Below are positions 1 through 55,629 of a stretch of DNA of 64,000 nt, piece after piece. Position 1 is the stretch's first letter; every line of letters begins with the position of its first letter. The stretch is from contig JAICWS010000005.1 of assembly GCA_025934695.1 (NCBI GenBank), positions 146,206 to 210,205 on the forward strand, given 5' to 3'. The notes beneath the pieces are model-generated. The model ran no database searches and was not told the origin of the DNA. It worked only from the letters and a program-made list of their open reading frames with translations. This DNA is from Alphaproteobacteria bacterium (GTDB lineage Bacteria; Pseudomonadota; Alphaproteobacteria; Micavibrionales; UBA2020). The position numbers and the translations under genes were made by a program.

Positions 1-602
1 GCTCGGACACCGAAAGCCGCATCCGCCATAACTTCGGCATGTCGCGGCCTGAAGGGTACCGCAAGGCCCAGCGCCTCCTGGACCTCGCCACCCAGTTCAA
101 GCTTCCCGTTGTGACCCTCGTGGATACGGCCGGGGCTTATCCCGGCATCGAGGCCGAGGAACGCGGCCAGTCCGAAGCCATCGCCAAATCCATTGAATCC
201 TGCCTGCGTGCGACCGTGCCCATCGTCTCGGTCATCATCGGCGAAGGCGGGTCGGGCGGCGCGATCGCGATCGCCACCGCCGACCGCGTCATGATGCTGG
301 AACATTCGATTTACTCAGTCATTTCGCCGGAAGGTTGCGCCTCGATCCTCTGGCGTTCGGCCGAATTCGCCAAGGATGCCGCCCGCGCGCTCAAACTGAC
401 GGCCCAGGACCTCAAGCAGCTCGGCATCATCGACGCGATCATCGAGGAACCGATGGGCGGCGCTCACCGCGAGCCCGACCGCACCGTCGACGTCGTCGGG
501 GACTACGTCGAAACGGCGCTGACCGAACTGTCGAAAATGGACGGCGACACGCTCAAACTGCGCCGCCGCCAGAAATATCTCGAAATGGGCCATACGGTTT
601 GA
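1..602 (+). CDS. accA: acetyl-CoA carboxylase carboxyltransferase subunit alpha (C-terminal part; 5' end outside window)
   Basis: Frame is open from the window edge to TGA 600-602. Contains [29 protein letters not shown] and [14 protein letters not shown], typical of AccA. Confidence 0.95.
546..602 (+). repeat. accA 3'-terminal 57 bp, copy 1 (functional gene end)
   Basis: Aligns without gaps to 1886..1942, with 50/57 identities by hand alignment. Confidence 0.85.
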
Positions 603-1813
603 TCACGGCCGCCGCTTCCGGTTTTCGCAATGCACTTAAATATGCCGACTGGTTGACGCCGGAACGATGCTGGCTATGGGCCCGCGCTTTTGCTTTCGCC
701 TGGATATTCCTTCTTATTTTCGATTTCGTGACCCATTCAACGCATGGCGTCATGGATGATAAGGGCGAGCATATCGGCCGCGACTACATCAATTACTGGG
801 CGGGCGCGAAACAGGCGATCGCGGGCAGAGCGCCCGCCGTCTACGACCTGACAGGCTTTTGGGACTATGAGAAGTCGCTTGTCGGCGACATTTCCGAAGC
901 CAAGATGTACAGCTATCCGCCCGTGCTTTTGCTTCTGACGCTGCCCCTGGGCCTCCTGCCTTTCCTGCCGGGCTATTTCCTCTGGAGCATTCTGGGCGTG
1001 GCGGCGGGAACATTGCTTCTGCGCGCGCAGACCGGATGGAAATGGCCACTGGCGTTGACCGCCGCTTTCGCCGCGCCAGCCTCGGCGTGGAATCTGATTG
1101 CCGGACAAAACGGATTTTTCACCGCTGTTTTCCTGGGCGGCGGGCTTCTCATGATGGGACGCCACCGCCCCATCCTCGGCGGGATTCTGCTGGGCTTTTT
1201 GTGTTACAAGCCGCAGCTTGGATTGCTGCTGCCGGTCGCCTTGCTTGCGGGGCGTGAATGGAAAGCTTTCTTCGCCGCTTCCGTCACGGTCGTTTCCGTC
1301 GTCGCTCTTTCTGCCTTGGTCTTCGGCATCAATGCCTGGCTCGGCTTTATTCACCAGGCACATACGCAGAGCATAATGCTGGATATGTCGCACTGGCCCT
1401 TGAGAATGCCGACGGCCTATGCCGCTTTGCGCGTTTTGCATGCTCCAGGTGTCCTTGCCTACGCAGCGCAGATCATATCAACGATCTGTGCCGCGGCCCT
1501 TGTGGCGAAAATCTGGCATAGCAAAACCTCCTATGCCGTCAAAAGCGCGGCGCTTTGCATGGCGGCATTCCTCGCCACACCCTATGCCTGGGACTACGAC
1601 ATGATCGTGCTGACCTGCGCGATGATCTGGATGATCATGGAAGCGCAGCGTACCGAATTCCTGCCGTGGGAAAAATTTACCTGGATGCTTGTCCTGTTGC
1701 TGCCGACGCCTCTCATGGCAGCCGCGCAGTTTTTAGGCTTTCAACCCGGCCCCTTCGTTCTCTGGGCGGCGCTCCTTCTGATCTTCCGCCGCTCGCGGCG
1801 CCTCAGCCCGTAA
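599..1813 (+). CDS. polytopic membrane glycosyltransferase-like protein (GT87/DUF2029-like)
   Basis: Many hydrophobic segments and a [17 protein letters not shown]...VYD region like DUF2029. The ORF-track start at 335 lies inside accA. I place the start at in-frame TTG 599, which overlaps the accA stop (TTGA). The start is uncertain. Confidence 0.6.
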
Positions 1814-1948: not shown

Positions 1949-3943
1949 TTAGCTACGCGACCAAGTCGTCGCGCGCCGGATATCACGACCGAGCCGGTAG
2001 ATGATCGGCTGGACCTGCACCGACCAGTTCAGCACGCTCGCGATATAGGGGTGTTTCGCCTTCGCATCGGCGTAATAACGGTCATATGCCGAGCCGCTCG
2101 CATAGGGATTCGGAAACAGGCGGGGCAGCGCCAGCAGCATGCTGATGAACATGGCGGCGACGGCGGCGCGGCCGATATATAGCCAGCGTTTCTCGATCTT
2201 CTTTTTGCCCGAGAGCAGCACGAGGTCCATGAAGGCCATGAAGCCGCGCAGCAGCGTCAGCACCACGACCGACAGCGAGATGACGAGTGAAATGGCCGGA
2301 ATATAGACGGCCTCCACATAGTCCTTGCCCTCGTCCATGCCTGACTCCCAGGGCGGATATTTGTCCCTGTCCTTGTTGAGCTCGGCCATCATCTCGTCGA
2401 CGATCTTCTGGTTGCCGGGAAGAACGACTTTCTTGTAGAAATCATCCTCGCTCATGATGAGTTCGGCGGTGGTGGGAATATTGCCGACGCCGGCCGCGGC
2501 CAGGAATTTATCTTCGTCGAGGCCGGGCTGCAGCTTGTCCCCGAACCGCGCCTTCCAGGCGGCGCCGGCGCGGCTGCTGATCATGTCGGCGATGCTTTTG
2601 CCGAAGGTGGCCGGATCGTACTTCCAGTCCTTGGGCAGCGTGAACGAGGGCATGTTGAATCGCTGCTGGATCATGGGCTCGACGCTCTTGCGGATGCGTT
2701 CCTGCGTCGGCGGCTGAGCGGCGAAGGTCGCGCGGTCGGGAATATCGGAATGGTAGCCGGTGCGGTTATAGAATTCGCGCTCGGCGCGGTCCTTGGCCTC
2801 GGCCATCGTCTTGCGGATATCGACGTTCGGGCAGTTGCCGCCGCTGCAATAGGCGTTCACCCGCCCCGCATAGGGCAGCATCTGCTGCAGCGAAACGTCG
2901 GCAATGACGCTGGCGCTCTGCTTGTAATCATGGACGCCGTCCTGGTAGGTCTTCCAGCCTTGGTCGATGCCCGCTTCGACTTCGGCGACGGCCTTGTCCG
3001 CCTCCGCCTTCGCGGAGGCGGGGTCGGCGGCTTGCTTGTAAATCTCGGACGCTTTGAGGTAGGGTTGATAATATTTCCGGTCGACCTCGTCGAGATATTT
3101 GCCGCGCGTGTCGGAGACTTTCCTCACGTATTTGGCGTAGAGGTCTTTCGACGAAAACCAGGTCCCGCTGGCCGCCGCTTTCTGCACGATCTCGTCCTTG
3201 CGCGCTTTCAGGTCGTTCAGAACCTTGTCGGGCGCCAGCATCCACAGGCTGCTGATGACGATGCGTGCGGATTTCATGCTCGCTTCGCCGCGGCTGGCGT
3301 CGCAGAACTGCAAACCACCCACGTCCAGCTTGCAGTCCTCAAGCCCGCCGCGCAGCATGAGGATGTACCGCGCATCCTGTCGCGTCTCCCAGGTCGTCCT
3401 GTCGATGAGGTAGCGCTCGATCAGCAGCTTCTGGCCCAGGAACATGGCGGGCCAGGCCATCAGGACGAGCCCGACGATCAGGTGAACCCGGAACTTCCCT
3501 GCGCTCAGCAGCACCGCGGCAAAACCCAGGAATGGCAGCATGGAGATTTGCGCGTCCCAAGGCTCGTCGTTCTGCGGCGCAGTCGTATTGTTGATAACGC
3601 CGAAGATGGCGTCGGCGAATTCCATGAGGAATGGAATAAAGCTGAAAGCGGCGAGCATGCCGAAGAGGGCCCAATGGCGCTTGTCCTTGAGCTGAAATCC
3701 GAAGGTCGCGAAAACGCCGATCGTCAGCAGCGAAAACCCATAACCCGATACCGCCCGGCCGAAATGCTGGAGGCTGCGGATGTCATCGGGATTGGATTTG
3801 ACGCTGCCCGCGACCTCGACGAGCTTCATGTTGAACAGCGCCTCCGCACCGATGTAGACCGTGCTCAAGGCAAGCAGCGCGAGGCCGAACGGCGAAAACA
3901 GCCGTTTCAGATTGTCTTTGCTGGAATGTTTGCCTCCGCCCAT
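1949..3943 (-). CDS. large hypothetical membrane protein (N- and C-terminal TM bundles around a ~350-aa soluble domain)
   Basis: 664-aa ORF with high GC3. Hydrophobic helices at both ends and a charged central region (KAEADKAVAEVEAG, CSGGNCPN). I recognise no family. Confidence 0.7.
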   Translation of the reverse strand: MGGGKHSSKDNLKRLFSPFGLALLALSTVYIGAEALFNMKLVEVAGSVKSNPDDIRSLQHFGRAVSGYGFSLLTIGVFATFGFQLKDKRHWALFGMLAAFSFIPFLMEFADAIFGVINNTTAPQNDEPWDAQISMLPFLGFAAVLLSAGKFRVHLIVGLVLMAWPAMFLGQKLLIERYLIDRTTWETRQDARYILMLRGGLEDCKLDVGGLQFCDASRGEASMKSARIVISSLWMLAPDKVLNDLKARKDEIVQKAAASGTWFSSKDLYAKYVRKVSDTRGKYLDEVDRKYYQPYLKASEIYKQAADPASAKAEADKAVAEVEAGIDQGWKTYQDGVHDYKQSASVIADVSLQQMLPYAGRVNAYCSGGNCPNVDIRKTMAEAKDRAEREFYNRTGYHSDIPDRATFAAQPPTQERIRKSVEPMIQQRFNMPSFTLPKDWKYDPATFGKSIADMISSRAGAAWKARFGDKLQPGLDEDKFLAAAGVGNIPTTAELIMSEDDFYKKVVLPGNQKIVDEMMAELNKDRDKYPPWESGMDEGKDYVEAVYIPAISLVISLSVVVLTLLRGFMAFMDLVLLSGKKKIEKRWLYIGRAAVAAMFISMLLALPRLFPNPYASGSAYDRYYADAKAKHPYIASVLNWSVQVQPIIYRLGRDIRRATTWSRS

Positions 3944-5134: not shown

Positions 5135-6111
5135 CCGTCACCACGAACCCCAGTCTCAAGCGCGTTCCCGATATCATGGTCTCGGTCAAGCAGCTGTTCG
5201 GCATCGACACTGAAGACCTGCAGGTGCCGGCCTTTTCGCAGAAATGGGATAACGTGCCCGACGTGGACGAGGCCTATCGCTTCGACAAGAACACGACGCT
5301 TGCCATCCTCGCTGGCTTCGCGCACAACAAGCGCGTGATGGTCCAGGGCTATCACGGCACGGGTAAGTCGACGCATATCGAACAGGTGGCCGCGCGTCTT
5401 AACTGGCCCTGCGTGCGCATCAACCTCGACAGCCATGTGAGCCGCATCGACCTGATCGGCAAGGACGTCATCACCCTGCGCGAAGGCAAGCAGATCACCG
5501 AATTCAAGGAAGGCATCCTGCCCTGGGCGCTCAAAAATCCCGTCGCCATCGTCTTCGACGAATACGACGCGGGCCGTCCGGACGTCATGTTCGTCATCCA
5601 ACGCGTGCTGGAAGCCGAAGGCAAGCTGACGCTGCTCGACCAGAATGAAGTCATCCGCCCGCACCCCGCGTTCCGCATCTTTGCGACGACGAACACAGTG
5701 GGCTTAGGGGACACGACCGGCCTCTACCACGGCACGCAGCAGATCAACCAAGGCCAGATGGACCGCTGGAACATCGTGGCGACCCTAAACTATTTGTCGC
5801 CCGAAGAGGAAATCGAGATCGTCCTTGCCCGGGTGCCAGCCTACAAGACCGACGAAGGCAAGAAAACCATCGCCGCCATGGTGCGCATGGCGAACCTGAC
5901 GCGCAAAGGCTTCATCGCGGGCGACCTGTCGACCGTCATGTCTCCGCGCACCGTCATCCATTGGGCCGAAAACGCGCAGATCGTGGGCGACATCGACTTC
6001 GCCTTCCAGCTCACCTTCCTCAACAAGTGCGACGATCTGGAGAAGTCGGTGGTATCCGAATATTACCAGCGCTGCTTCGACCGCGCGCTGATCAAGACGA
6101 AGGAAGATTGA
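5131..6111 (+). CDS. cobS: cobaltochelatase subunit CobS-like AAA+ (MoxR-type) ATPase
   Basis: Walker A at [33 protein letters not shown] and RIFATTNT blocks are typical of CobS. Confidence 0.9.
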
Positions 6112-19521: not shown

Positions 19522-19550
19522 TTGACAGCCCTCCGCCCCTCCGATAAATT
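19522..19550 (+). promoter_or_regulatory. sigma70-type promoter
   Basis: TTGACA, 17 nt spacer, TAAATT. Lies upstream of the small ORF and fdxA. Confidence 0.55.
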
Positions 19551-39523: not shown

Positions 39524-40255
39524 ATGGCTTTCGGCTGGCTGAAACAACTCACAACCACTTTTAAGAGTGCGGCGGACGACCGCTCGCCTTGGGAACAGGA
39601 TCGCGACCGGATGTTCAAAGCCATTAAGACCGGCGATGCAAAAGCCGTCGACGACATCGCGCAGGCCTATCCGGACGAATTCATGACATGGAAGACGAAA
39701 GACGGAACCCCGCTGCAAGTCGCGCAGCAGGAGAATCGTCTGGATGTTTTCGAGACACTTGTCAGGCATGGCGCCGACGTCAATGAGAGAGGCAAGAAGG
39801 ACTGGACTCCCCTCCTGCGCGCCGCCCGCGACACCCAGAAGGATTTTTTTGATTTCCTTGTCGACAATGGCGCGGACCTGGATGCAAAAGCAATCATCAA
39901 GGTATCCTCGAGTGATTACAGTTCGACGACTTACACCGCGACGGCGCTGCACCTCTGCATAAAGAACGACAACAAGGATATGGTCATCAAGTTGCTCGAA
40001 CGCGGCGCCGACCCGAATGTGCAGGCGCATATGACATGGGGCGGATCTGCGGACCGCACGTCCGCGGATTATGCGGAGTACAAGAAAAAATTTACCCTGG
40101 CCGACGCCTGCAAGCGCGCGGACAAAATTCGCGCCGCCTATCTGGCCGAGCATCCGGCGCAACCGGCAGCCGCCATCCCCGTCGACGAGATTGCTGGCAA
40201 GATCACGGTAAACAGCCCGCTGCAGCTGAAAAGGCCCGAAAACACGGCTCCTTAA
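39524..40255 (+). CDS. ankyrin-repeat protein
   Basis: DWTPLLRAARDTQKDFFDFLVDNGADLDAK; TALHLCIKNDNKDMVIKLLERGADPN. Tail is ITVNSPLQLKRPENTAP. Confidence 0.85.
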   Translation: MAFGWLKQLTTTFKSAADDRSPWEQDRDRMFKAIKTGDAKAVDDIAQAYPDEFMTWKTKDGTPLQVAQQENRLDVFETLVRHGADVNERGKKDWTPLLRAARDTQKDFFDFLVDNGADLDAKAIIKVSSSDYSSTTYTATALHLCIKNDNKDMVIKLLERGADPNVQAHMTWGGSADRTSADYAEYKKKFTLADACKRADKIRAAYLAEHPAQPAAAIPVDEIAGKITVNSPLQLKRPENTAP

Positions 40256-49449: not shown

Positions 49450-52400
49450 ATGATGCACTTCAAAAAACTGAAGCTGACGGGCTTCAAATCGTTCGTCGAG
49501 CTGACTGAGTTCGAAATCGGCAAGGGCCTGACCGGCATCGTAGGGCCGAACGGCTGCGGCAAGTCGAACATCATGGAAGCCCTGCGCTGGGCGATGGGCG
49601 AAAACTCGCCCAAGCGCATGCGCTCCTCCGGCATGGAAGACGTGATTTTCGCCGGAACGGAAATGCGCCCGCCGCGCAATTCGGCCGAAGTCACGCTGTT
49701 CCTCGACAATTCCGAGCGCACCGCGCCCGCCGAACTCAACGATTCAGACGAACTCGAAGTCGTGCGCAAGATCGAGCGCGACGTCGGCTCGACCTACAAG
49801 GTCAACGGCAAGGTCGTGCGCATGCGCGACGTGCAGCTGCTCTTCGCGGATTCTTCCGTCGGTTCGCATTCCCCCGCGCTCGTCTCCCAGGGCCGCGTCG
49901 CGGACATGATCAACGCCAAGCCCACCCAGCGCCGCATGGTGCTGGAAGAAGCGGCCGGCATCTCGGGCCTCCACGCCCGCCGCCATGAGGCGGAACTGAA
50001 ACTCAAAGCCGCCGAAACCAACCTGCTGCGCGTCGAAGACGTGCTGGGCGCGATGAACGTCCAGCTCGAAGGCCTCAAGAAGCAGGCCCGCCAGGCGTCG
50101 CGCTACCGCAACCTGTCCGGCCATATCCAGACGGCGGAAGGCTCGCTGCTGTACCTGAAATTCCAGGAAAGCCAGACGGCCGTAGCAGCCGCCCTCGCCG
50201 CCTTCGAAACCGCCGAGAACACCGTGCGCGACCGCATGCTGGTCGTGACCGAACTGACGACGAAACAAACCGAAGCCGCGGCGCAGGTGCCGCAGCTGCG
50301 CCAGACGGAAGCCGAAGCCGCCGCAGCATTGCAGCGCCTGAAGCTCGCCTACGGCAGCCTCGAAACCGAAGAGCGCCAGGTCAACGAAGACCGCGCGAAA
50401 TCGGAAAGCCTGATCCAGCAATACGGCACCGACGTCGAGCACGAAAACCTCCAGAAGACCGAGGCGAACGACACTGTTTCCCGCCTTGGCTCCGAACAGG
50501 CCAACCTCGAGCAGGAAGCCACGACGCAGGCCGGCCGCGAAGAAGAAGCGCGCATCCTGCGCGACGAGACGCAGGCCACGGTCGAGAAGATCGAGACCGA
50601 GCTGACGCAGCTGACGGAGGAGGTCGCGTCGCAGGACGCCGAGCGCCATTCGTCCGAGCGCCGCATCGGCGAATTCGAGCGCCGCATCCAGCAGCTGACC
50701 GACCGCAAAGCAAACCTCGAGAACCAGCACGCGAATATTCTGGCCAATACGCCGGCGAAAGCAGAACTGGAAGAGATCGTCACGCACATCGCGACCGCCG
50801 AAGAGACCTATCAGGCTGCCAGCGCAACCTTCGACCAGACCGAAGCCACTCGCGCGACTGCGGACGCCGCCGTCCATGAAACGGCGGAGACGCTGCAAAC
50901 CGTGCAGCGCACTTTCTCGCAGCTGACGGCCGAGGCCGACGCGCTTCGCCGAATCCTGCGCAACCAGCAGGAAGGCTATCAGCCGGTCATCGACCTGCTG
51001 AACGTCGATGCGGGCCTTGAAAAGGCGCTTGCCGTCGCTTTCGGCGATGACCTGCAAGCAGCACTCGACGGTTCCGCGCCCATCTATTGGCGCGAACTGC
51101 CCGAATACACCAGCGTCTCTCCTCTTCCTGGCAATGCGAAGCCCTTGAGCCAATATGTCCGCGGCCCGCAGGCGCTGAACCGCACGCTGTCGCAGATCGG
51201 AGTGGTTGAGAATGCCGCCGAAGCCGAAAGCCTGATGGCCGGCCTGCAGCCGGGCCAGTGCCTCGTCACGCTCGACGGCGGCGCTTGGCGCTGGGACGGC
51301 CTCACCGTCTCGTCGGATGCCGAAAACGCGTCGGCCATCCGCCTGCAACAGAAAAACCGCCTGGCCGAACTCGAGACCGAGATTGCGACGGTGCAGGTGC
51401 AGCTCGACGCCGCCCGCACTGCCTCCACCGCCGCAAAGGACGCGCGCCTTGTCGCGATCGAAGCGGTCAACGCCGCCCGCCAGGCCTTCCGGCAATCTGA
51501 AGAGGCGCTGAACGGATTGCGCCGCCGCCACACGCAGCTCAGCAACCAGCTGACCGAAGTCACGGCGAAACTCTCAAGCCTGACCGCCAACATCGAAACG
51601 GCGGGCCAGGAATTCGAAGCCGTCGCGCAACAGCTCTCCGAAGCGCGTGAAGCGCACGAGCTGCTGCCCGACACCGCCGAAAGCCGCGAGAAGATCGTGG
51701 CGCTGAAGGCCCAACTTGGCGAACAGCGCCAGACGCTGGCAAACCAGCAGGCCGCCTATGCCGAGATCATGCGCGAGGGCGAGAACCGCAACCGCCGCAT
51801 CAATCAGATCAAGAACGACATCACCGGCTGGCAGGGCCGCCTCGAGCGCATCGACCTGCGCCTCCTCGAACTCGAAGAGCGCATCACGCAGGCGCAGGAA
51901 GTCCTCGACCGGCTGGCCGAGCGTCCTGCGCAGATCGAGCGCGAGAAGCAGGAACTGCTCTCCCGCATCACGGAAGCCGAAGCCAAGCGCCAGGAAGCAG
52001 CCGACATCCTCGTGGCCGCCGAAACTGCGGCGAACGATCTCGCCCGCGAGCTGCGCGCCGCCGAAAGCGGCTTGTCGGATGCCAAGGAAGCCCGCGCGAT
52101 GGCGCAGGCCTCCGTCAATACGACACAGCACACGCAGACCGGCATCGAAGCCTCCATCCAGGAGAAATTCAACTGCACGCCGGAAGAAATGGTTGCCCGC
52201 CTCGAACTCAAAGTCGATGAACTCGGCGACATCGCGAGCTGGCAGGGCAAGCTGGAACGCCTGTTGCGCGAGCGTGACAATATGGGCCCCGTGAACCTGC
52301 GCGCCGAAGTCGAGGCGAGCGAGATCACCGACAAGATGACCGGCCTCTCGACCGAGCGCGACGACCTCGTCGCCGCCATCGGCAAGCTGCGCGAAGGCAT

Positions 52401-52908
52401 CAACACGCTCAACAAGGAAGCGCGCACGCGCCTCCTGTCGGCGTTTGACACCGTCAACACCCACTTCCAGAAGCTCTTCACCCGCCTGTTCAACGGCGGC
52501 TCCGCTTACCTGAAGCTCATCGAAGCCGACGACCCGCTGGAATCGGGCCTCGAGATCTACGCGCAGCCGCCGGGCAAGAAGCTCAGCGTGCTGTCGCTGC
52601 TCTCGGGCGGCGAGCAGACGCTGACCTCCATCGCGCTCATCTTCGGCATGTTCTTGACGAACCCCGCCCCGATCTGCGTGCTGGACGAGGTGGACGCCCC
52701 GCTCGACGAAAGCAACGTCGACCGCTATTGTACGCTGCTCGAAGACCTGGCGAAGGAAACCAGCACGAGGTTCGTTGTCATTACCCACCACCGCATGACG
52801 ATGGCCCGCATGGACCGCCTCTACGGCGTCACCATGAGCGAAAAAGGCGTCTCGCAGCTCGTCTCCGTCGACCTCAAGCAGCACGAACTGCAGCTGGAAG
52901 CGGCTTAA
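49450..52908 (+). CDS. smc: chromosome segregation protein SMC
   Basis: 1152 aa. N-terminal GPNGCGKSN, long coiled coils, C-terminal LSGGEQTLTSIALIF and CVLDEVDAPLD. Confidence 0.97.
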   Translation: MMHFKKLKLTGFKSFVELTEFEIGKGLTGIVGPNGCGKSNIMEALRWAMGENSPKRMRSSGMEDVIFAGTEMRPPRNSAEVTLFLDNSERTAPAELNDSDELEVVRKIERDVGSTYKVNGKVVRMRDVQLLFADSSVGSHSPALVSQGRVADMINAKPTQRRMVLEEAAGISGLHARRHEAELKLKAAETNLLRVEDVLGAMNVQLEGLKKQARQASRYRNLSGHIQTAEGSLLYLKFQESQTAVAAALAAFETAENTVRDRMLVVTELTTKQTEAAAQVPQLRQTEAEAAAALQRLKLAYGSLETEERQVNEDRAKSESLIQQYGTDVEHENLQKTEANDTVSRLGSEQANLEQEATTQAGREEEARILRDETQATVEKIETELTQLTEEVASQDAERHSSERRIGEFERRIQQLTDRKANLENQHANILANTPAKAELEEIVTHIATAEETYQAASATFDQTEATRATADAAVHETAETLQTVQRTFSQLTAEADALRRILRNQQEGYQPVIDLLNVDAGLEKALAVAFGDDLQAALDGSAPIYWRELPEYTSVSPLPGNAKPLSQYVRGPQALNRTLSQIGVVENAAEAESLMAGLQPGQCLVTLDGGAWRWDGLTVSSDAENASAIRLQQKNRLAELETEIATVQVQLDAARTASTAAKDARLVAIEAVNAARQAFRQSEEALNGLRRRHTQLSNQLTEVTAKLSSLTANIETAGQEFEAVAQQLSEAREAHELLPDTAESREKIVALKAQLGEQRQTLANQQAAYAEIMREGENRNRRINQIKNDITGWQGRLERIDLRLLELEERITQAQEVLDRLAERPAQIEREKQELLSRITEAEAKRQEAADILVAAETAANDLARELRAAESGLSDAKEARAMAQASVNTTQHTQTGIEASIQEKFNCTPEEMVARLELKVDELGDIASWQGKLERLLRERDNMGPVNLRAEVEASEITDKMTGLSTERDDLVAAIGKLREGINTLNKEARTRLLSAFDTVNTHFQKLFTRLFNGGSAYLKLIEADDPLESGLEIYAQPPGKKLSVLSLLSGGEQTLTSIALIFGMFLTNPAPICVLDEVDAPLDESNVDRYCTLLEDLAKETSTRFVVITHHRMTMARMDRLYGVTMSEKGVSQLVSVDLKQHELQLEAA

Positions 52909-53019
52909 CCATTTCCTCCTCCCCTTTGGGAGAGGAGGCTTATGCAACCGGGACTCTTCCGCAATTGTTTATCTGGCGCGGCCGATTTACAATCGTTGCG
53001 GTAAGGACCATTGCTCCTC

Positions 53020-53838
53020 ATGCCAAACGCGCCGCTGCCGTTCCGCCCTGAAATCTATCCGCGCATCTACAGGCTTCGCTTTGACCGCGCCGTCGGGGCG
53101 TTGTTTTTGGGATTTGGCGGGCTTTTCCTCGGGCTGGGGCGGCTGTCCGACCTGGGATCGGGCGACGAAGCCGTTCCTTTCGACTTTACCCGTTTCAAGT
53201 GGACCATTATCCGGCGCGTCGCGACCGAGCATCCGCTGCCTTTTTGCAACGAGATCGTAACGATTGCCTGGATGATATGCGTCGGCGTATGCTTTGTCCT
53301 CTTCCCCGCCATGCAAAGAGTGAAATTGACCGCGGATTCAATCGAGGTCGGATGGTTTTTCCGCGCCCGAAAAATGCGGCGCGACGAAATCGAAGGCATG
53401 CGTCTGAGGATCCTGCGCAGGGGCTCCGCCTTCCTGAACTTCCTCGTTCCGAAAGACGAGACCAAAGTGCCTGTTTTCTTGCCGGAACTGAATTTTGACG
53501 GCGACTACGACGCCTGGGTCGGAAATCTCCCGTTTCTTGGCAGTGACATACTGATCTCGCGCAAAGAAATAGTCGAGAATGCCAGGCCGGTCGAATGGCG
53601 GAATCATCAGTGGGTGCCTGCCGACATGCCGCCCGCGAAGCCTGAAAAAGACCTGGTCACACCGGCGGCGCTTTTAGTGGCCTTCGGCCTGCCCGCACTG
53701 ATCGTCGCACTGATTTATTTCGCGACCTCACTTGTTCCGCTGATCTTTCTCAACATCGCGGCGGCGATCGTTCTCTATGCCGCTTATGTTCTCGGTTACA
53801 TTTTTAAGCACAGACCGTCGGGGAGGGATGCGCGATGA
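53020..53838 (+). CDS. hypothetical membrane protein (two TM pairs flanking a soluble, possibly PH-like, domain)
   Basis: Hydrophobic pairs at the N- and C-termini. ATG 53020 is preferred over TTG 53011. Confidence 0.55.
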   Translation: MPNAPLPFRPEIYPRIYRLRFDRAVGALFLGFGGLFLGLGRLSDLGSGDEAVPFDFTRFKWTIIRRVATEHPLPFCNEIVTIAWMICVGVCFVLFPAMQRVKLTADSIEVGWFFRARKMRRDEIEGMRLRILRRGSAFLNFLVPKDETKVPVFLPELNFDGDYDAWVGNLPFLGSDILISRKEIVENARPVEWRNHQWVPADMPPAKPEKDLVTPAALLVAFGLPALIVALIYFATSLVPLIFLNIAAAIVLYAAYVLGYIFKHRPSGRDAR

Positions 53839-53924
53839 GCGCCGTCTCAAGGACACGCGCCCGGGTCGTCGTCGACGCCGGTGCATTAGAAGCTATCCCC
53901 CTCAGCCCCAGAGCAAAAATATAT

Positions 53925-53954
53925 TTGACATAATATTGAAAAATCGGATATAGT
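53925..53954 (+). promoter_or_regulatory. sigma70-type promoter (TTGACATAATATT core), RNA unit 1
   Basis: TTGACA, 18 nt spacer, TATAGT. Confidence 0.65.
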
Positions 53955-53960
53955 ACCACC

Positions 53961-54149
53961 AGCAATGCGCAACCACGGCAGTCGCTTTCAAGCACGCTTC
54001 TCGGCTGACGGTTAAGGCGCAATCTGCAAAGCGGCCAGAAAGCCACCCGACACGGGCGGCGCAGCTGGCTGTTTTCCTCCCGAAAATGGCAGCCCTGAAA
54101 TGAGCCGGACAAACGGCAACCGGGAGAGTGTGTAAAGGAGAACTAAAAG
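53961..54149 (+). ncRNA. conserved structured 5' leader, copy 1 (unclassified; CCUCC-loop hairpin)
   Basis: About 190 nt, colinear with 54657..54851. Hairpins at 54042-54060, 54067-54094 (loop CCUCCCG) and 54104-54117. Shine-Dalgarno GGAG at 54137-54140. Confidence 0.55.
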
Positions 54150-54467
54150 ATGGCTGACCAGAAAATCACCCTGTTCTTTGAAAATGCCGCCGGCGAACGC
54201 GCATTCAGCACGAACAACGGCACGCTGCGCGCGATCTTCGCGCAGGCGAACGTCGAAGCTCCCGAACCGGCTTTCGACCTCCTCAAATCGAAGGATCCCG
54301 TCGTTTCCATCGTCTTTACGGCGCCGGATGACGCCGTGAATAGAGTCGCCAAAGCTGCGAGCGGCTACGAGAATGTCGCCGTCGCCCGCGGCGAGCTGAC
54401 AAATGACAATGTGCGCGAGGTGTTTTCGAAGAAAGACATGATAAAGCTCGCGGTTTGGACGATGTAG
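54150..54467 (+). CDS. hypothetical 105-aa protein
   Basis: MADQKITLFFENAAG... GGAG lies 9 nt upstream and a terminator lies downstream. Confidence 0.55.
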   Translation: MADQKITLFFENAAGERAFSTNNGTLRAIFAQANVEAPEPAFDLLKSKDPVVSIVFTAPDDAVNRVAKAASGYENVAVARGELTNDNVREVFSKKDMIKLAVWTM

Positions 54468-54578
54468 CAGTCTTCAGACGATGCGTGCGGATCTTGTCGA
54501 CGGTGCGCCTCAGTTCGCCAAGAGAACCGGAGTTTGCCTTTGAATCGCCAGATAGAGGCCTTGCGAAGATTCCTTTCG

Positions 54579-54604
54579 AAGGGCGGAGCTACGCCCTTTA
54601 TTTC
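54579..54604 (+). terminator. rho-independent terminator
   Basis: GGGCG-GAGCTA-CGCCC followed by TTTATTT. Confidence 0.6.
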
Positions 54605-54620
54605 AAAAGAAAAAATAAAG

Positions 54621-54650
54621 TTGACATAATATTACGAAATCGGTTATATT
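54621..54650 (+). promoter_or_regulatory. sigma70-type promoter (TTGACATAATATT core), RNA unit 2
   Basis: TTGACA, 18 nt spacer, TATATT. Confidence 0.6.
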
Positions 54651-54656
54651 AATACC

Positions 54657-54969
54657 ACGCAATGCGCAACCACGGCAGCCGCTTTAAAGCACGTTTCTCG
54701 GCTGACGGTAAGGCGCAACCTGCTAAAACGGCCAGATTATTCACCCGGTACGGGTGACGAGCTGGCTGTTTCCCTCCGAATACAGCACAGCTCGAAAATA
54801 AAGCCGGACAAACGGCAAAACGAGTGGTGTGTGTACAAGGAAAACGAAAATATGGCCGGTCAAACCGCCTTTTTCACAAGTTTCAGGACGATCAAATAGT
54901 CTCCGCGCGCCGCGCGGTATCGATGGTGTCTCTGGACGGCCGCCATCGATCCGCGCGGCGCAATTTTTT
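54657..54969 (+). ncRNA. conserved structured RNA, copy 2: stand-alone sRNA-like unit with a 15-codon ORF and strong terminator
   Basis: Hairpins at 54741-54757, 54761-54791 (loop CCUCC) and 54803-54816. Micro-ORF 54852..54899 (MAGQTAFFTSFRTIK). 18-19-bp terminator stem at 54908-54960 followed by T6. Confidence 0.55.
54908..54969 (+). terminator. strong rho-independent terminator
   Basis: CGCCGCGCGGTATCGATGG ... CCATCGATCCGCGCGGCG followed by CAATTTTTT. Confidence 0.8.
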
Positions 54970-54983
54970 CCGAACATCAATAT

Positions 54984-55619
54984 TCAGTTTGAGGGAGAAG
55001 GCGAATCCGCTTTCTTCAGCTTCAGGGGGCCCTTCACTTCGATCGCGCCTGCCGTCGAAACAGCCGCGTCATTGAACGCGTCCGCCGCGCCGGACATCAG
55101 CGGTGAGGCCGCCTGCCCGGGTGCCGGCGGATTGCGCAAAACCTGCAGGACATCCGCAAGCTTGGCGGCATAATCAAACGCCGTCTTCCCCTCGTTATCG
55201 GCCACCAAAGGATCGGCCCCGCGCTCGAGCAGGGCGCGCACAAGCTTCGGCTTCCCCTGCTGCACGGCGCAATGAAGCGCAGTGCCGCCGGTGCTCGTCC
55301 GGGTGTTGATGTCGGCGCCGGCCGCAAGCAGCAGGTCCGTCATTTTCAGGCGGCCGCCCATCGCGGCGAAAAGGACTGCGGGCGTCTTCTCATCTATCGT
55401 AAAAGGCACGAGTATTCCCGCCGCGCCAATGCGGGCCCCGCAACCGGGATTGGCGCCGTCTTTCAGCGCCTTTCCTGCGATCAGCAGGCGGTTGTGGAAG
55501 ACGGCGACTTCGAGACGGTCATTGAGCGTCTTTGACGTCGGCGGCGAAATCTTGTCCTTCAGCGCGAGCAGCGGGATAAGCAGCATTTGCGACGGGGCCG
55601 TCAGCAAATTCCAGTTCAT
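54984..55619 (-). CDS. ankyrin-repeat protein
   Basis: TPAVLFAAMGGRLKMTDLLLAAGADINTRTSTGGTALHCAVQQGKPKLVRALLERGADP. Tail is IEVKGPLKLKKADSPSPSN. Start at the second ATG, 6 nt after GGAG. Confidence 0.85.
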   Translation of the reverse strand: MNWNLLTAPSQMLLIPLLALKDKISPPTSKTLNDRLEVAVFHNRLLIAGKALKDGANPGCGARIGAAGILVPFTIDEKTPAVLFAAMGGRLKMTDLLLAAGADINTRTSTGGTALHCAVQQGKPKLVRALLERGADPLVADNEGKTAFDYAAKLADVLQVLRNPPAPGQAASPLMSGAADAFNDAAVSTAGAIEVKGPLKLKKADSPSPSN

Positions 55620-55629
55620 CTGCATCTCC

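Follow-up and report, generated by a model that had tools for sequence, protein, structure and literature searches.

Paralogous copies of an uncatalogued structured leader RNA in a variable genomic island of an uncultured alphaproteobacterium

Two colinear units at one locus

We analyzed a 64,000-nt stretch of the genome of an uncultured alphaproteobacterium (Micavibrionales; UBA2020; assembly GCA_025934695.1, contig JAICWS010000005.1, positions 146,206 to 210,205 of the forward strand), hereafter referred to as the window. Two similar units, each with a promoter followed by a structured RNA, lie in it in tandem at 53925..54152 (unit 1, u1) and 54621..54855 (unit 2, u2). An initial annotation had described them as an unclassified leader or small RNA (sRNA) family with an emphasis on hairpins presenting CCUCC in the loop; the leader and the uncatalogued structured RNA stand, while the emphasis on the CCUCC loops does not. 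We suggest that the units are paralogous copies of a narrowly distributed, cis-acting structured leader that is absent from Rfam and belongs to genes of the type of ORF105, the 105-codon open reading frame (ORF) behind unit 1, a reading to which we give an even chance. The features of the locus are as follows.

53925..53954, + strand: unit 1 promoter (TTGACA, 18-nt spacer, TATAGT; 11/12 consensus match), predicted transcription start at ~53961/53962
53962..54027, + strand: unit 1 5' domain (helices P0-P2), pairing from the first transcribed nucleotide, with a 17-nt apical loop on P2
54028..54075, + strand: unit 1 P3/P4, a long irregular hairpin (AAAGCGGCCAG...CUGGCUGUUUU) enclosing GCC.CCCG-ACA-CGGG.GGC, with flanking A- and U-tracts; candidate leader terminator
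54076..54081, + strand: unit 1 CCUCCC, directly 3' of P3, predicted to be mostly unpaired or paired with CGGGAG at 54122..54127 and not with the Shine-Dalgarno (SD) sequence
54104..54117, + strand: unit 1 P6 hairpin, GCCG-GACAAA-CGGC, the same in both units
54135..54140, + strand: unit 1 SD sequence, AAGGAG
54150..54467, + strand: ORF105, of an uncharacterized small-protein family, with gene-like codon statistics
54580..54605, + strand: modest unit 1 terminator, AGGGCG-GAGCUA-CGCCCU followed by UUUAUUUC
54621..54650, + strand: unit 2 promoter (TTGACA, 18-nt spacer, TATATT; 11/12 consensus match), predicted transcription start at ~54657
54659..54723, + strand: unit 2 5' domain (P0-P2), identical at 54/54 nt to the orthologous copy on contig L002
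54725..54771, + strand: unit 2 P3/P4 hairpin (-26.0 kcal/mol, z = -4.65)
54772..54777, + strand: unit 2 CCCUCC, with predicted pairing of UCC to GGA in the SD sequence (p = 0.86)
54803..54816, + strand: unit 2 P6 hairpin, the same as in unit 1
54837..54842, + strand: unit 2 SD sequence, AAGGAA
54852..54899, + strand: 15-codon ORF MAGQTAFFTSFRTIK, a remnant of an ORF105-type start
54907..54969, + strand: unit 2 intrinsic terminator with a stem of 21 bp and then AAUUUUUU (T6 run; -44.9 kcal/mol, z = -5.2)

A MAFFT alignment of 53900..54200 with 54596..54900 confirms that the units are colinear, with a mean identity of 85%. The alignment spans from approximately -10 relative to the -35 box to a few codons beyond the ATG; homology between the units ends ~12 nt past the ATG and the rest of ORF105 cannot be traced behind unit 2. 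The promoter is common to both units, as had been noted, and the 5' block that had been judged by eye to be about nine-tenths identical differs at 5 of 66 positions, corresponding to 92% identity. The 20-mer GCAATGCGCAACCACGGCAG that opens the RNA occurs in the window only at 53962 and 54659 (0.01 occurrences expected). The leaders are predicted to be ~188 nt (unit 1) and ~195 nt (unit 2) long. Downstream of them, the layout is also as first annotated, i.e. unit 1 continues into an SD sequence, ORF105 and a terminator and unit 2 into the 15-codon ORF and a very strong terminator, giving a predicted transcript of ~310 nt from ~54657 to ~54967. We rejected a mobile repeat because every copy is at one locus. 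As a separate observation, the start of the 15-codon ORF (GGCCGGTCAAACCGCC, 54853..54867) resembles the invariant P6 sequence GCCGGACAAACGGC, which may be an internal echo or chance.

A conserved two-domain fold

The architecture of the RNA was derived from RNAalifold on u1 and u2 and from independent minimum-free-energy folds of the first ~115 nt of u1, u2 and a distant homologue on contig L384, which is described below. Folded independently, the three sequences give one architecture of P0-P1-P2 plus P3. Its core is a 5'-terminal three-tier stem-loop, P0-P2 (nt 1-66), followed by P3/P4 (nt 67-114), and the helices are as follows.

P0: GCA/UGC (u1/u2); pairs from the first transcribed nucleotide in u1, u2 and L384
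P1: 5 bp, UGCGC/GCGCA (u1/u2)
P2: 2+6 bp with a large apical loop; in unit 1 CG.CAGUCG/CGGCUG.CG
P3: 11 bp, AAA(A/G)CGGCCAG/CUGGCUGUUU(U); directly 3' of P0-P2 (u1/u2)
P4: atop P3, in u1 and u2 only

P3/P4 is predicted to be unusually stable, with -29.2 kcal/mol in u1, -26.0 kcal/mol in u2 and -11 kcal/mol in L384 (z = -3.7, -4.65 and -2.6, respectively). It lies between an A-tract and a U-tract, the latter being UUUU in u1, UUU in u2 and U6-8 in L384, and the complete tails are UUUUCCUCC, UUUCCCUCC and UUUUUUCAU, respectively, with those in the window left unflagged by a simple terminator scan. Between u1 and u2, one P4 pair changes from C-G to U-A in a compensatory manner, and one A.C is repaired to A-U. 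This agrees with the earlier description of a first hairpin, our P4, that is the same in pairing and different in sequence in the two units. The third hairpin of that description, GCCG-GACAAA-CGGC, is indeed invariant at 54104..54117 and 54803..54816.

A distant homologue and covariation

The evidence base for the family consists of three distinct sequences (u1, u2 and L384) and one truncated copy on contig L002. A covariance model built from u1 and u2 matches L384 at 1983..2185 over its full length with 16.2 bits (E = 8e-4). The best unrelated score with this model was 9.8 bits (~97 kb searched with filters off, i.e. 85 kb of relatives and 12 kb of contig L386, and the window with default filters). 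The match in L384 starts 7 nt past a TTGACG-17-CAGAGT promoter and lies upstream of the gene for P0127, an ORF105 homologue of 32% identity from another lineage; this gene is present on three identical contigs, L383 to L385, and its upstream spacer is 440 nt. Because the gene of a distant ORF105 homologue is preceded by a homologous leader with covariation, the leader belongs with the ORF105-type gene, and the reading of the RNA as a leader in the initial annotation is supported.

Compared with the fold of u1 and u2, the 27 pairs in L384 contain six double-sided compensations, three compatible single changes and one break. In P1, UGCGC/GCGCA is changed to CGUGC/GCACG; in P2, CG/CG is changed to UG/CA and CAG(U/C)CG/CGGCUG to CAGGCG/CGCCUG; and in P3, both top pairs are changed. 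Identity between u1 and L384 is 70% in paired columns (38/54) and 33% in unpaired columns (16/48). In a hand-made alignment, 97.3% of the cells are paired, compared to 27-41% with slid partners. Taking the six double-sided changes in P1-P3 of L384 together with the one in P4 between u1 and u2, a structured RNA with compensatory changes, as first proposed, is found in n = 3 sequences. P1-P3 covary; with three sequences, this covariation is supportive of the fold, not conclusive. We rejected a DNA operator because the compensatory changes point to RNA pairing. L384 also holds a colinear GGACAACG but not as a P6 hairpin.

The model also scored on the minus strand of the window, where the reverse complement of P3/P4 (54029..54075 and 54726..54771) gives 16.6 and 22.7 bits, respectively. 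The reverse complement scores because the hairpin is nearly palindromic, and we regard these matches as a search artefact and not as an antisense gene.

A further candidate is a leader on the minus strand of contig L258 (6465..6605). Its promoter is of the same type, its closing helix resembles P0, and ~100 nt from the start it has a P3-like, terminator-like element consisting of an A-tract, a hairpin and U7. The models give it only 10-11 bits (E 0.3-1), and the gene behind it, an orphan of 539 aa, is unrelated. We did not count it as a member of the family; the resemblance may reflect very distant relatedness or convergence. At the L001 locus, which has a 44% homologue of the gene upstream of the units, only the promoter type is in common. 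On the remaining contigs with ORF105 homologues, the upstream spacers are 447 nt (P0125) and 227 nt (P0126), and the locus of a 2009-aa repeat protein with the same domain (see below) is without the leader.

Searches with short sequences gave no further copies. A genome scan with GCGCAACCACGGCAGNCGCTTT had no matches, and one with the invariant P6 17-mer had 119 matches, all of which we attribute to chance with a common stretch of only a 17-21-mer. The 14 matches to AACCACGGCAG-N18-30-CGGCTGACGG in a metagenome scan were all in unrelated coding sequence. Viral scans with 14-15-mers gave only chance matches among the matches listed, a protein-guided viral scan gave none, and plasmid and phage sequences likewise gave none with blastn or tblastn.

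Purifying selection on the 5' domain

The truncated copy is on L002, a 1.26-kb JGI contig with a 90%-identical homologue of the 275-aa gene upstream of the units and with a copy of the unit, in which the contig ends after 54 nt of RNA. By common diagnostic substitutions, an indel and the upstream 50 nt, this copy is the orthologue of unit 2. Between L002 and the window, 0/54 positions in the 5' domain of the RNA are changed versus 36/179 third codon positions of the neighboring gene and 18/89 positions in the non-coding flank (P ~5e-6), and the neutral divergence is ~20%. The paralogues differ at 5/66 positions in the 5' domain versus 26/82 in the 3' part (p = 4e-4). Because the RNA is unchanged in the face of ~20% neutral divergence, we conclude from these sequence comparisons that the first ~60 nt are under strong purifying selection. 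It had been claimed that the RNA is better conserved than the coding part. Constraint on the RNA does exceed that on its surroundings; however, the contrast with the coding part is better explained by a duplication that ended just past the start codon than by a relaxation of selection on the coding part.

These data also bear on the possibility that the leader is a passive 5' untranslated region (UTR), in which the 5' stem-loops would only stabilize a highly expressed mRNA by shielding the 5' end, while unit 2 would be what a partial duplication left behind and would have no function. In all three sequences, P0 includes the first transcribed nucleotides; the units cease to be homologous ~12 nt into the ORF, as expected after a segmental duplication; and the surrounding island is highly variable among relatives, all of which fits such an origin. 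On the other hand, the absence of changes in 54 positions compared to ~20% neutral divergence, in a 5' domain far less diverged than the rest, points to constraint beyond that on a generic hairpin, and the two-domain architecture is kept across a protein distance of 32% identity. We therefore consider a passive leader unlikely, although it deserves to be taken seriously. The 5' UTR of ompA, with its 5'-terminal stabilizing stem-loop, illustrates the comparison. As in ompA, the transcript begins with a helix; unlike in ompA, sequence-level constraint and a conserved second domain exceed what a generic protective hairpin has.

The downstream gene and its protein family

ORF105 looks like a real gene by its codon statistics: its first, second and third codon positions have GC contents of 0.585, 0.396 and 0.726, respectively, and only this frame has positive codon log-odds. 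A word-indexed protein search with ORF105 returned only itself. An exhaustive HMMER search identified P0125, P0126 and P0127, which are 102-111 aa long, have 32-38% identity and a conserved N-terminus. The ORF105 domain is also present as 21 tandem repeats in the 2009-aa P0124 (L386 3001..9030), encoded beside IS66 genes in a low-GC organism, and five times in the 515-aa P0128. Because it is repeated in these two proteins, the domain is a reusable module. Nothing significant was found for ORF105 in Pfam, NCBIfam, PHROGs or PADLOC (best DUF982, E = 0.077). Its AlphaFold2 (AF2) model is beta-alpha-beta-alpha-beta-alpha with a pLDDT of 74, and a Foldseek search against the PDB gave nothing below E = 0.05.

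The CCUCC stretch and relation to known regulatory RNAs

In the initial annotation, a second hairpin presents CCUCC in its loop in both units. This hairpin can be drawn in both units and uses GGCUGUUU(U), i.e. the 3' strand of P3. Because it needs this strand, it is mutually exclusive with P3, which is far more stable and, being transcribed earlier, can fold first. A constraint meant to force the hairpin in u1 raised the predicted energy from -70.4 to -64.2 kcal/mol, although the hairpin was formed only in part in the resulting fold. Moreover, CCUCC is absent from L384, which retains P3. The emphasis on CCUCC loops is thus not sustained.

Apart from the pairings listed for each unit, CCUCC is single-stranded in the predicted ensembles. 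Strong pairing with the SD sequence is predicted only in unit 2 (UCC with GGA, p = 0.86); in unit 1, CCUCC prefers CGGGAG at 54122..54127, and the SD sequence is predicted to be largely open. Masking of the SD sequence in cis, the function that had been considered for the CCUCC loops, is accordingly predicted for one unit and not for the other. In these folding models, an anti-SD function is possible only as a lineage-specific add-on, and not as the conserved function.

The Rfam 15 library, which includes models for riboswitches, ROSE elements, ar14, ar15 and other alphaproteobacterial sRNAs, had no match in the whole window at the gathering score. At E<=10, nothing credible was found in 53800..55100, where the best matches were a small nucleolar RNA with 17 bits (cut-off 60) and a CRISPR repeat, and the L384 leader had no match. 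The RNA is therefore unclassified, as had been supposed before the library was searched.

Could the units, especially the gene-less unit 2, be trans-acting sRNAs in which a single-stranded CCUCC pairs with the SD sequences of other mRNAs, as in AbcR and alpha-r14/cuckoo RNAs? Tandem anti-SD sRNAs occur in Alphaproteobacteria (PMC8844928, PMC4615179). In favor of this reading, a promoter and a very strong terminator delimit unit 2, CCUCC is within a stretch that is largely unpaired and directly follows a stable hairpin, and the unit 2 orthologue in L002 has the 5' domain without a single change. AbcR1 and AbcR2 (alpha-r15) are head-to-tail homologous sRNAs, each with its own promoter and terminator and with an anti-SD motif (PMC8844928); the family is recognized by a match to its model, and its members are ~110 nt long with CUCCCA-type motifs and their own terminator. 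The two RNAs described here are similarly arranged head-to-tail, each with a promoter, a terminator and an anti-SD motif. However, these units are ~190-310 nt long, behind one of them lies a 105-codon gene from a conserved family, conservation resides in the 5' stem-loop domain and not in the anti-SD motif, and there is no Rfam match. The alpha-r14 RNAs (cuckoo, CcsR, NfeR1) are short stand-alone sRNAs with the nonamer CCUCCUCCC in the loops of at least two hairpins (PMC4615179, PMC8034643, PMC10746234). They have in common with the units an alphaproteobacterial host, multi-copy or tandem RNAs and an unpaired C/U-rich, anti-SD-like stretch. By contrast, each unit has a single CCUCC(C), i.e. 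CCUCCC at 54076..54081 and CCCUCC at 54772..54777, that is outside the conserved fold and missing in the distant homologue; the nonamer is present in neither unit; and the RNA forms the 5' UTR of a protein-coding gene and has no cmscan match. More generally, a trans-acting role is difficult to reconcile with a distant homologue that lacks CCUCC and yet keeps P0-P3, with conservation that is highest in the 5' domain and not around CCUCC, with cmscan results that are negative for ar14, ar15 and all other sRNA families, with the lack of a complementary target for the P2 or P6 loop within the window, and with unit 1, which is clearly the 5' UTR of a gene. On this evidence, trans-acting sRNAs seem rather improbable to us.

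A riboswitch or RNA thermometer, in which a ligand or temperature would switch between P3 and the CCUCC hairpin and thereby free or mask the SD sequence, would make use of the two mutually exclusive pairings of GGCUGUUU(U) and of the predicted pairing of the CCUCC region with the SD sequence in u2 (p = 0.86). Against such a switch, P3/P4 is stable by ~26-29 kcal/mol and forms first in transcription, and neither the alternative hairpin nor CCUCC is kept in L384. Between the lineages, unpaired nucleotides are only 33% identical, which is unusual for a ligand-binding aptamer. In riboswitches, conserved unpaired nucleotides form the pocket, whereas here, in three sequences only, u1 and L384 are identical at 16/48 unpaired versus 38/54 paired positions. 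No riboswitch, ROSE or fourU model matches. Like ROSE and fourU thermometers, the units have 5' UTR hairpins able to mask the SD sequence in Alphaproteobacteria; unlike in these elements, the SD sequence is outside the conserved hairpin, and masking is predicted in one of two copies. We regard a switch of this kind as quite improbable.

A short upstream ORF, MRNHGSRFQARFSADG, whose translation would control the downstream gene, is the least probable explanation and is hardly credible: its ATG (53965/54662), 4 nt from the RNA start, opens 16 in-frame codons in u1, and two of the three substitutions that separate u1 from u2 here are synonymous as read from the alignment, but there is no SD sequence and only 3-5 nt upstream of the ATG, a 1-nt indel shifts the stop to give 31 codons in u2 and L002, the ATG is ACG in L384, and the same substitutions fit the RNA helices and loops. 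We therefore rejected a conserved upstream ORF.

A model for the leader

In the model that we favor, i.e. a cis-acting structured leader of ORF105-type genes, a strong sigma-70-type promoter would start the transcript. The first 66 nt would fold at once into P0-P2, the stable P3/P4 would form next, and a less conserved 3' segment would lead to the SD sequence. The leader would act in cis and after initiation on the downstream gene, with P3/P4 as a leader terminator or roadblock whose effect is set by the 5' domain; alternatively, it may control stability or translation. The candidate terminator consists of a stable hairpin and a U-tail, with 3-4 U in the window and 6-8 U in L384, and the U7 element in L258 is similar. 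The 5' domain would be a recognition element, most likely for a bound factor and not a small-molecule pocket; a factor fits better than a small ligand because the junction and loop nucleotides, although frozen within the lineage, vary between lineages. Pairing of the 5' end may also protect the mRNA, and CCUCC after P3 may provide this lineage with an option for local masking of the SD sequence. Unit 2 would be a copy in which the gene body was lost or was absent from the outset; it may serve as a titrating or decoy, sRNA-like copy or may be a young remnant.

The RNA is a previously uncatalogued structured leader with a very narrow known distribution, and it is of a known kind, i.e. structured 5' leaders, possibly of the attenuator type. 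Attenuating 5' leaders have gene-less derivatives, for instance the riboswitch-terminated SreA/SreB of Listeria and EutX/Rli55. The arrangement of a strong promoter, a sensor-like 5' domain, a hairpin with a U-tract, and an SD sequence with a gene is similar in these systems and at the locus described here, as is a paralogous copy that ends without a gene. Unlike in these systems, no conserved junction nucleotides and no antiterminator alternative were found here, and the U-tract in the window is weak.

Several observations weigh against a cis-acting leader of this design. The covariation is statistically weak, as expected for three distinct sequences: six of 500 shuffles reach the observed level. 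In addition, the alignment of L384 was obtained with a structure-aware model, which favors pairs, and junction and loop nucleotides differ between the lineages. The U-tract after P3 in the window is short and interrupted by C, and a simple terminator scan made no call there. On inspecting the folds of u1, u2 and L384, we saw no conserved antiterminator in which the 5' strand of P3 would pair with the 5' domain. In their 3' halves, u1 and u2 differ in predicted fold. Finally, the L002 contig ends inside the leader and before any gene behind the unit 2 orthologue.

More speculatively, P0-P2 could be the recognition element of a new circuit of post-initiation control. The factor recognized would be specific to the lineage, perhaps the ORF105 protein, and would choose between termination at P3/P4 and read-through. 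Unit 2, which is conserved in a sister species, could then be a decoy that titrates this factor, and tandem duplication could have generated a pair of leader and sponge for a family whose proteins are small and effector-like. We consider this combination a long shot.

If confirmed, the RNA would define a new family of structured leader RNAs in a clade of uncultured alphaproteobacteria, in which the SMC protein is only ~49% identical to that of the nearest cultured relatives. This family would be tied to a small, uncharacterized protein domain that is also found as 21 tandem repeats in a giant protein, and its locus lies in a variable island of ankyrin-repeat and orphan genes with one promoter type. 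A pair of gene-linked and gene-less copies could show a 5' UTR turning into a stand-alone RNA. The practical value is limited by the tiny family and the uncultured host.

Genomic setting

The promoter type of the units recurs around them. A 3-kb region contains six promoter-like sites versus 1.1 expected, and with the extended motif TTGACATAAT(ATT) and up to two mismatches there are nine sites in the window versus 0.37 expected. These sites are at 19545, 26937 (-), 27587, 39467, 40267, 53925, 54621 and others. Promoters of the TTGACATAAT type also precede the ankyrin-repeat genes starting at 39524 and 40351, with short leaders, and the same type is found at an ankyrin gene in L001 and at the 539-aa orphan gene in L258. 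Because it recurs at island genes, we regard this promoter as the house style of these genes and not as specific to the RNA; it looks like the common promoter of an effector-like gene set.

Upstream of the units, the window encodes an SMC protein (49450..52908) with 87% identity to proteins from metagenome-assembled genomes of uncultured 'Alphaproteobacteria bacterium' and ~49% identity to those of Azospirillaceae. Five relatives keep the same backbone of a thioredoxin-like gene, smc, an island, a 158-aa gene, and genes for an ion channel, rhodanese and PMSR. Both units sit within this variable island between smc and the 158-aa gene, and the RNA is absent from the smc-flanking regions of the five relatives (79-87% SMC identity).

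Among relatives in this range of SMC identity, the stretch from smc to the 158-186-aa gene (window 52909..56984; L257-L262 and L382) is hypervariable: it is empty in L259 and elsewhere contains up to several genes of the orphan, ankyrin, DUF6782 or DUF1963 type. Some relatives have intergenic repeats of the form …gaagtaccccaccttcccgcgc…ccccaaaggggaggaagagagcgcc… (L257 13990..14110; L382 4290..4370 and 5360..5440), which are REP-/MITE-like; none was noticed near the two units in the window. In L002, a gene of ~186 codons (535..1110), possibly a paralogue of the 275-aa gene, lies between the latter and the RNA unit. The window retains at 53835..53905 only the first ~15 nt (ATGAGCGCCG...) and the last ~20 nt (...GCCGGTGCATTAGAAGC) of this gene. 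Because only its ends are left, the region of unit 1 and ORF105 has been remodelled by deletion or replacement.

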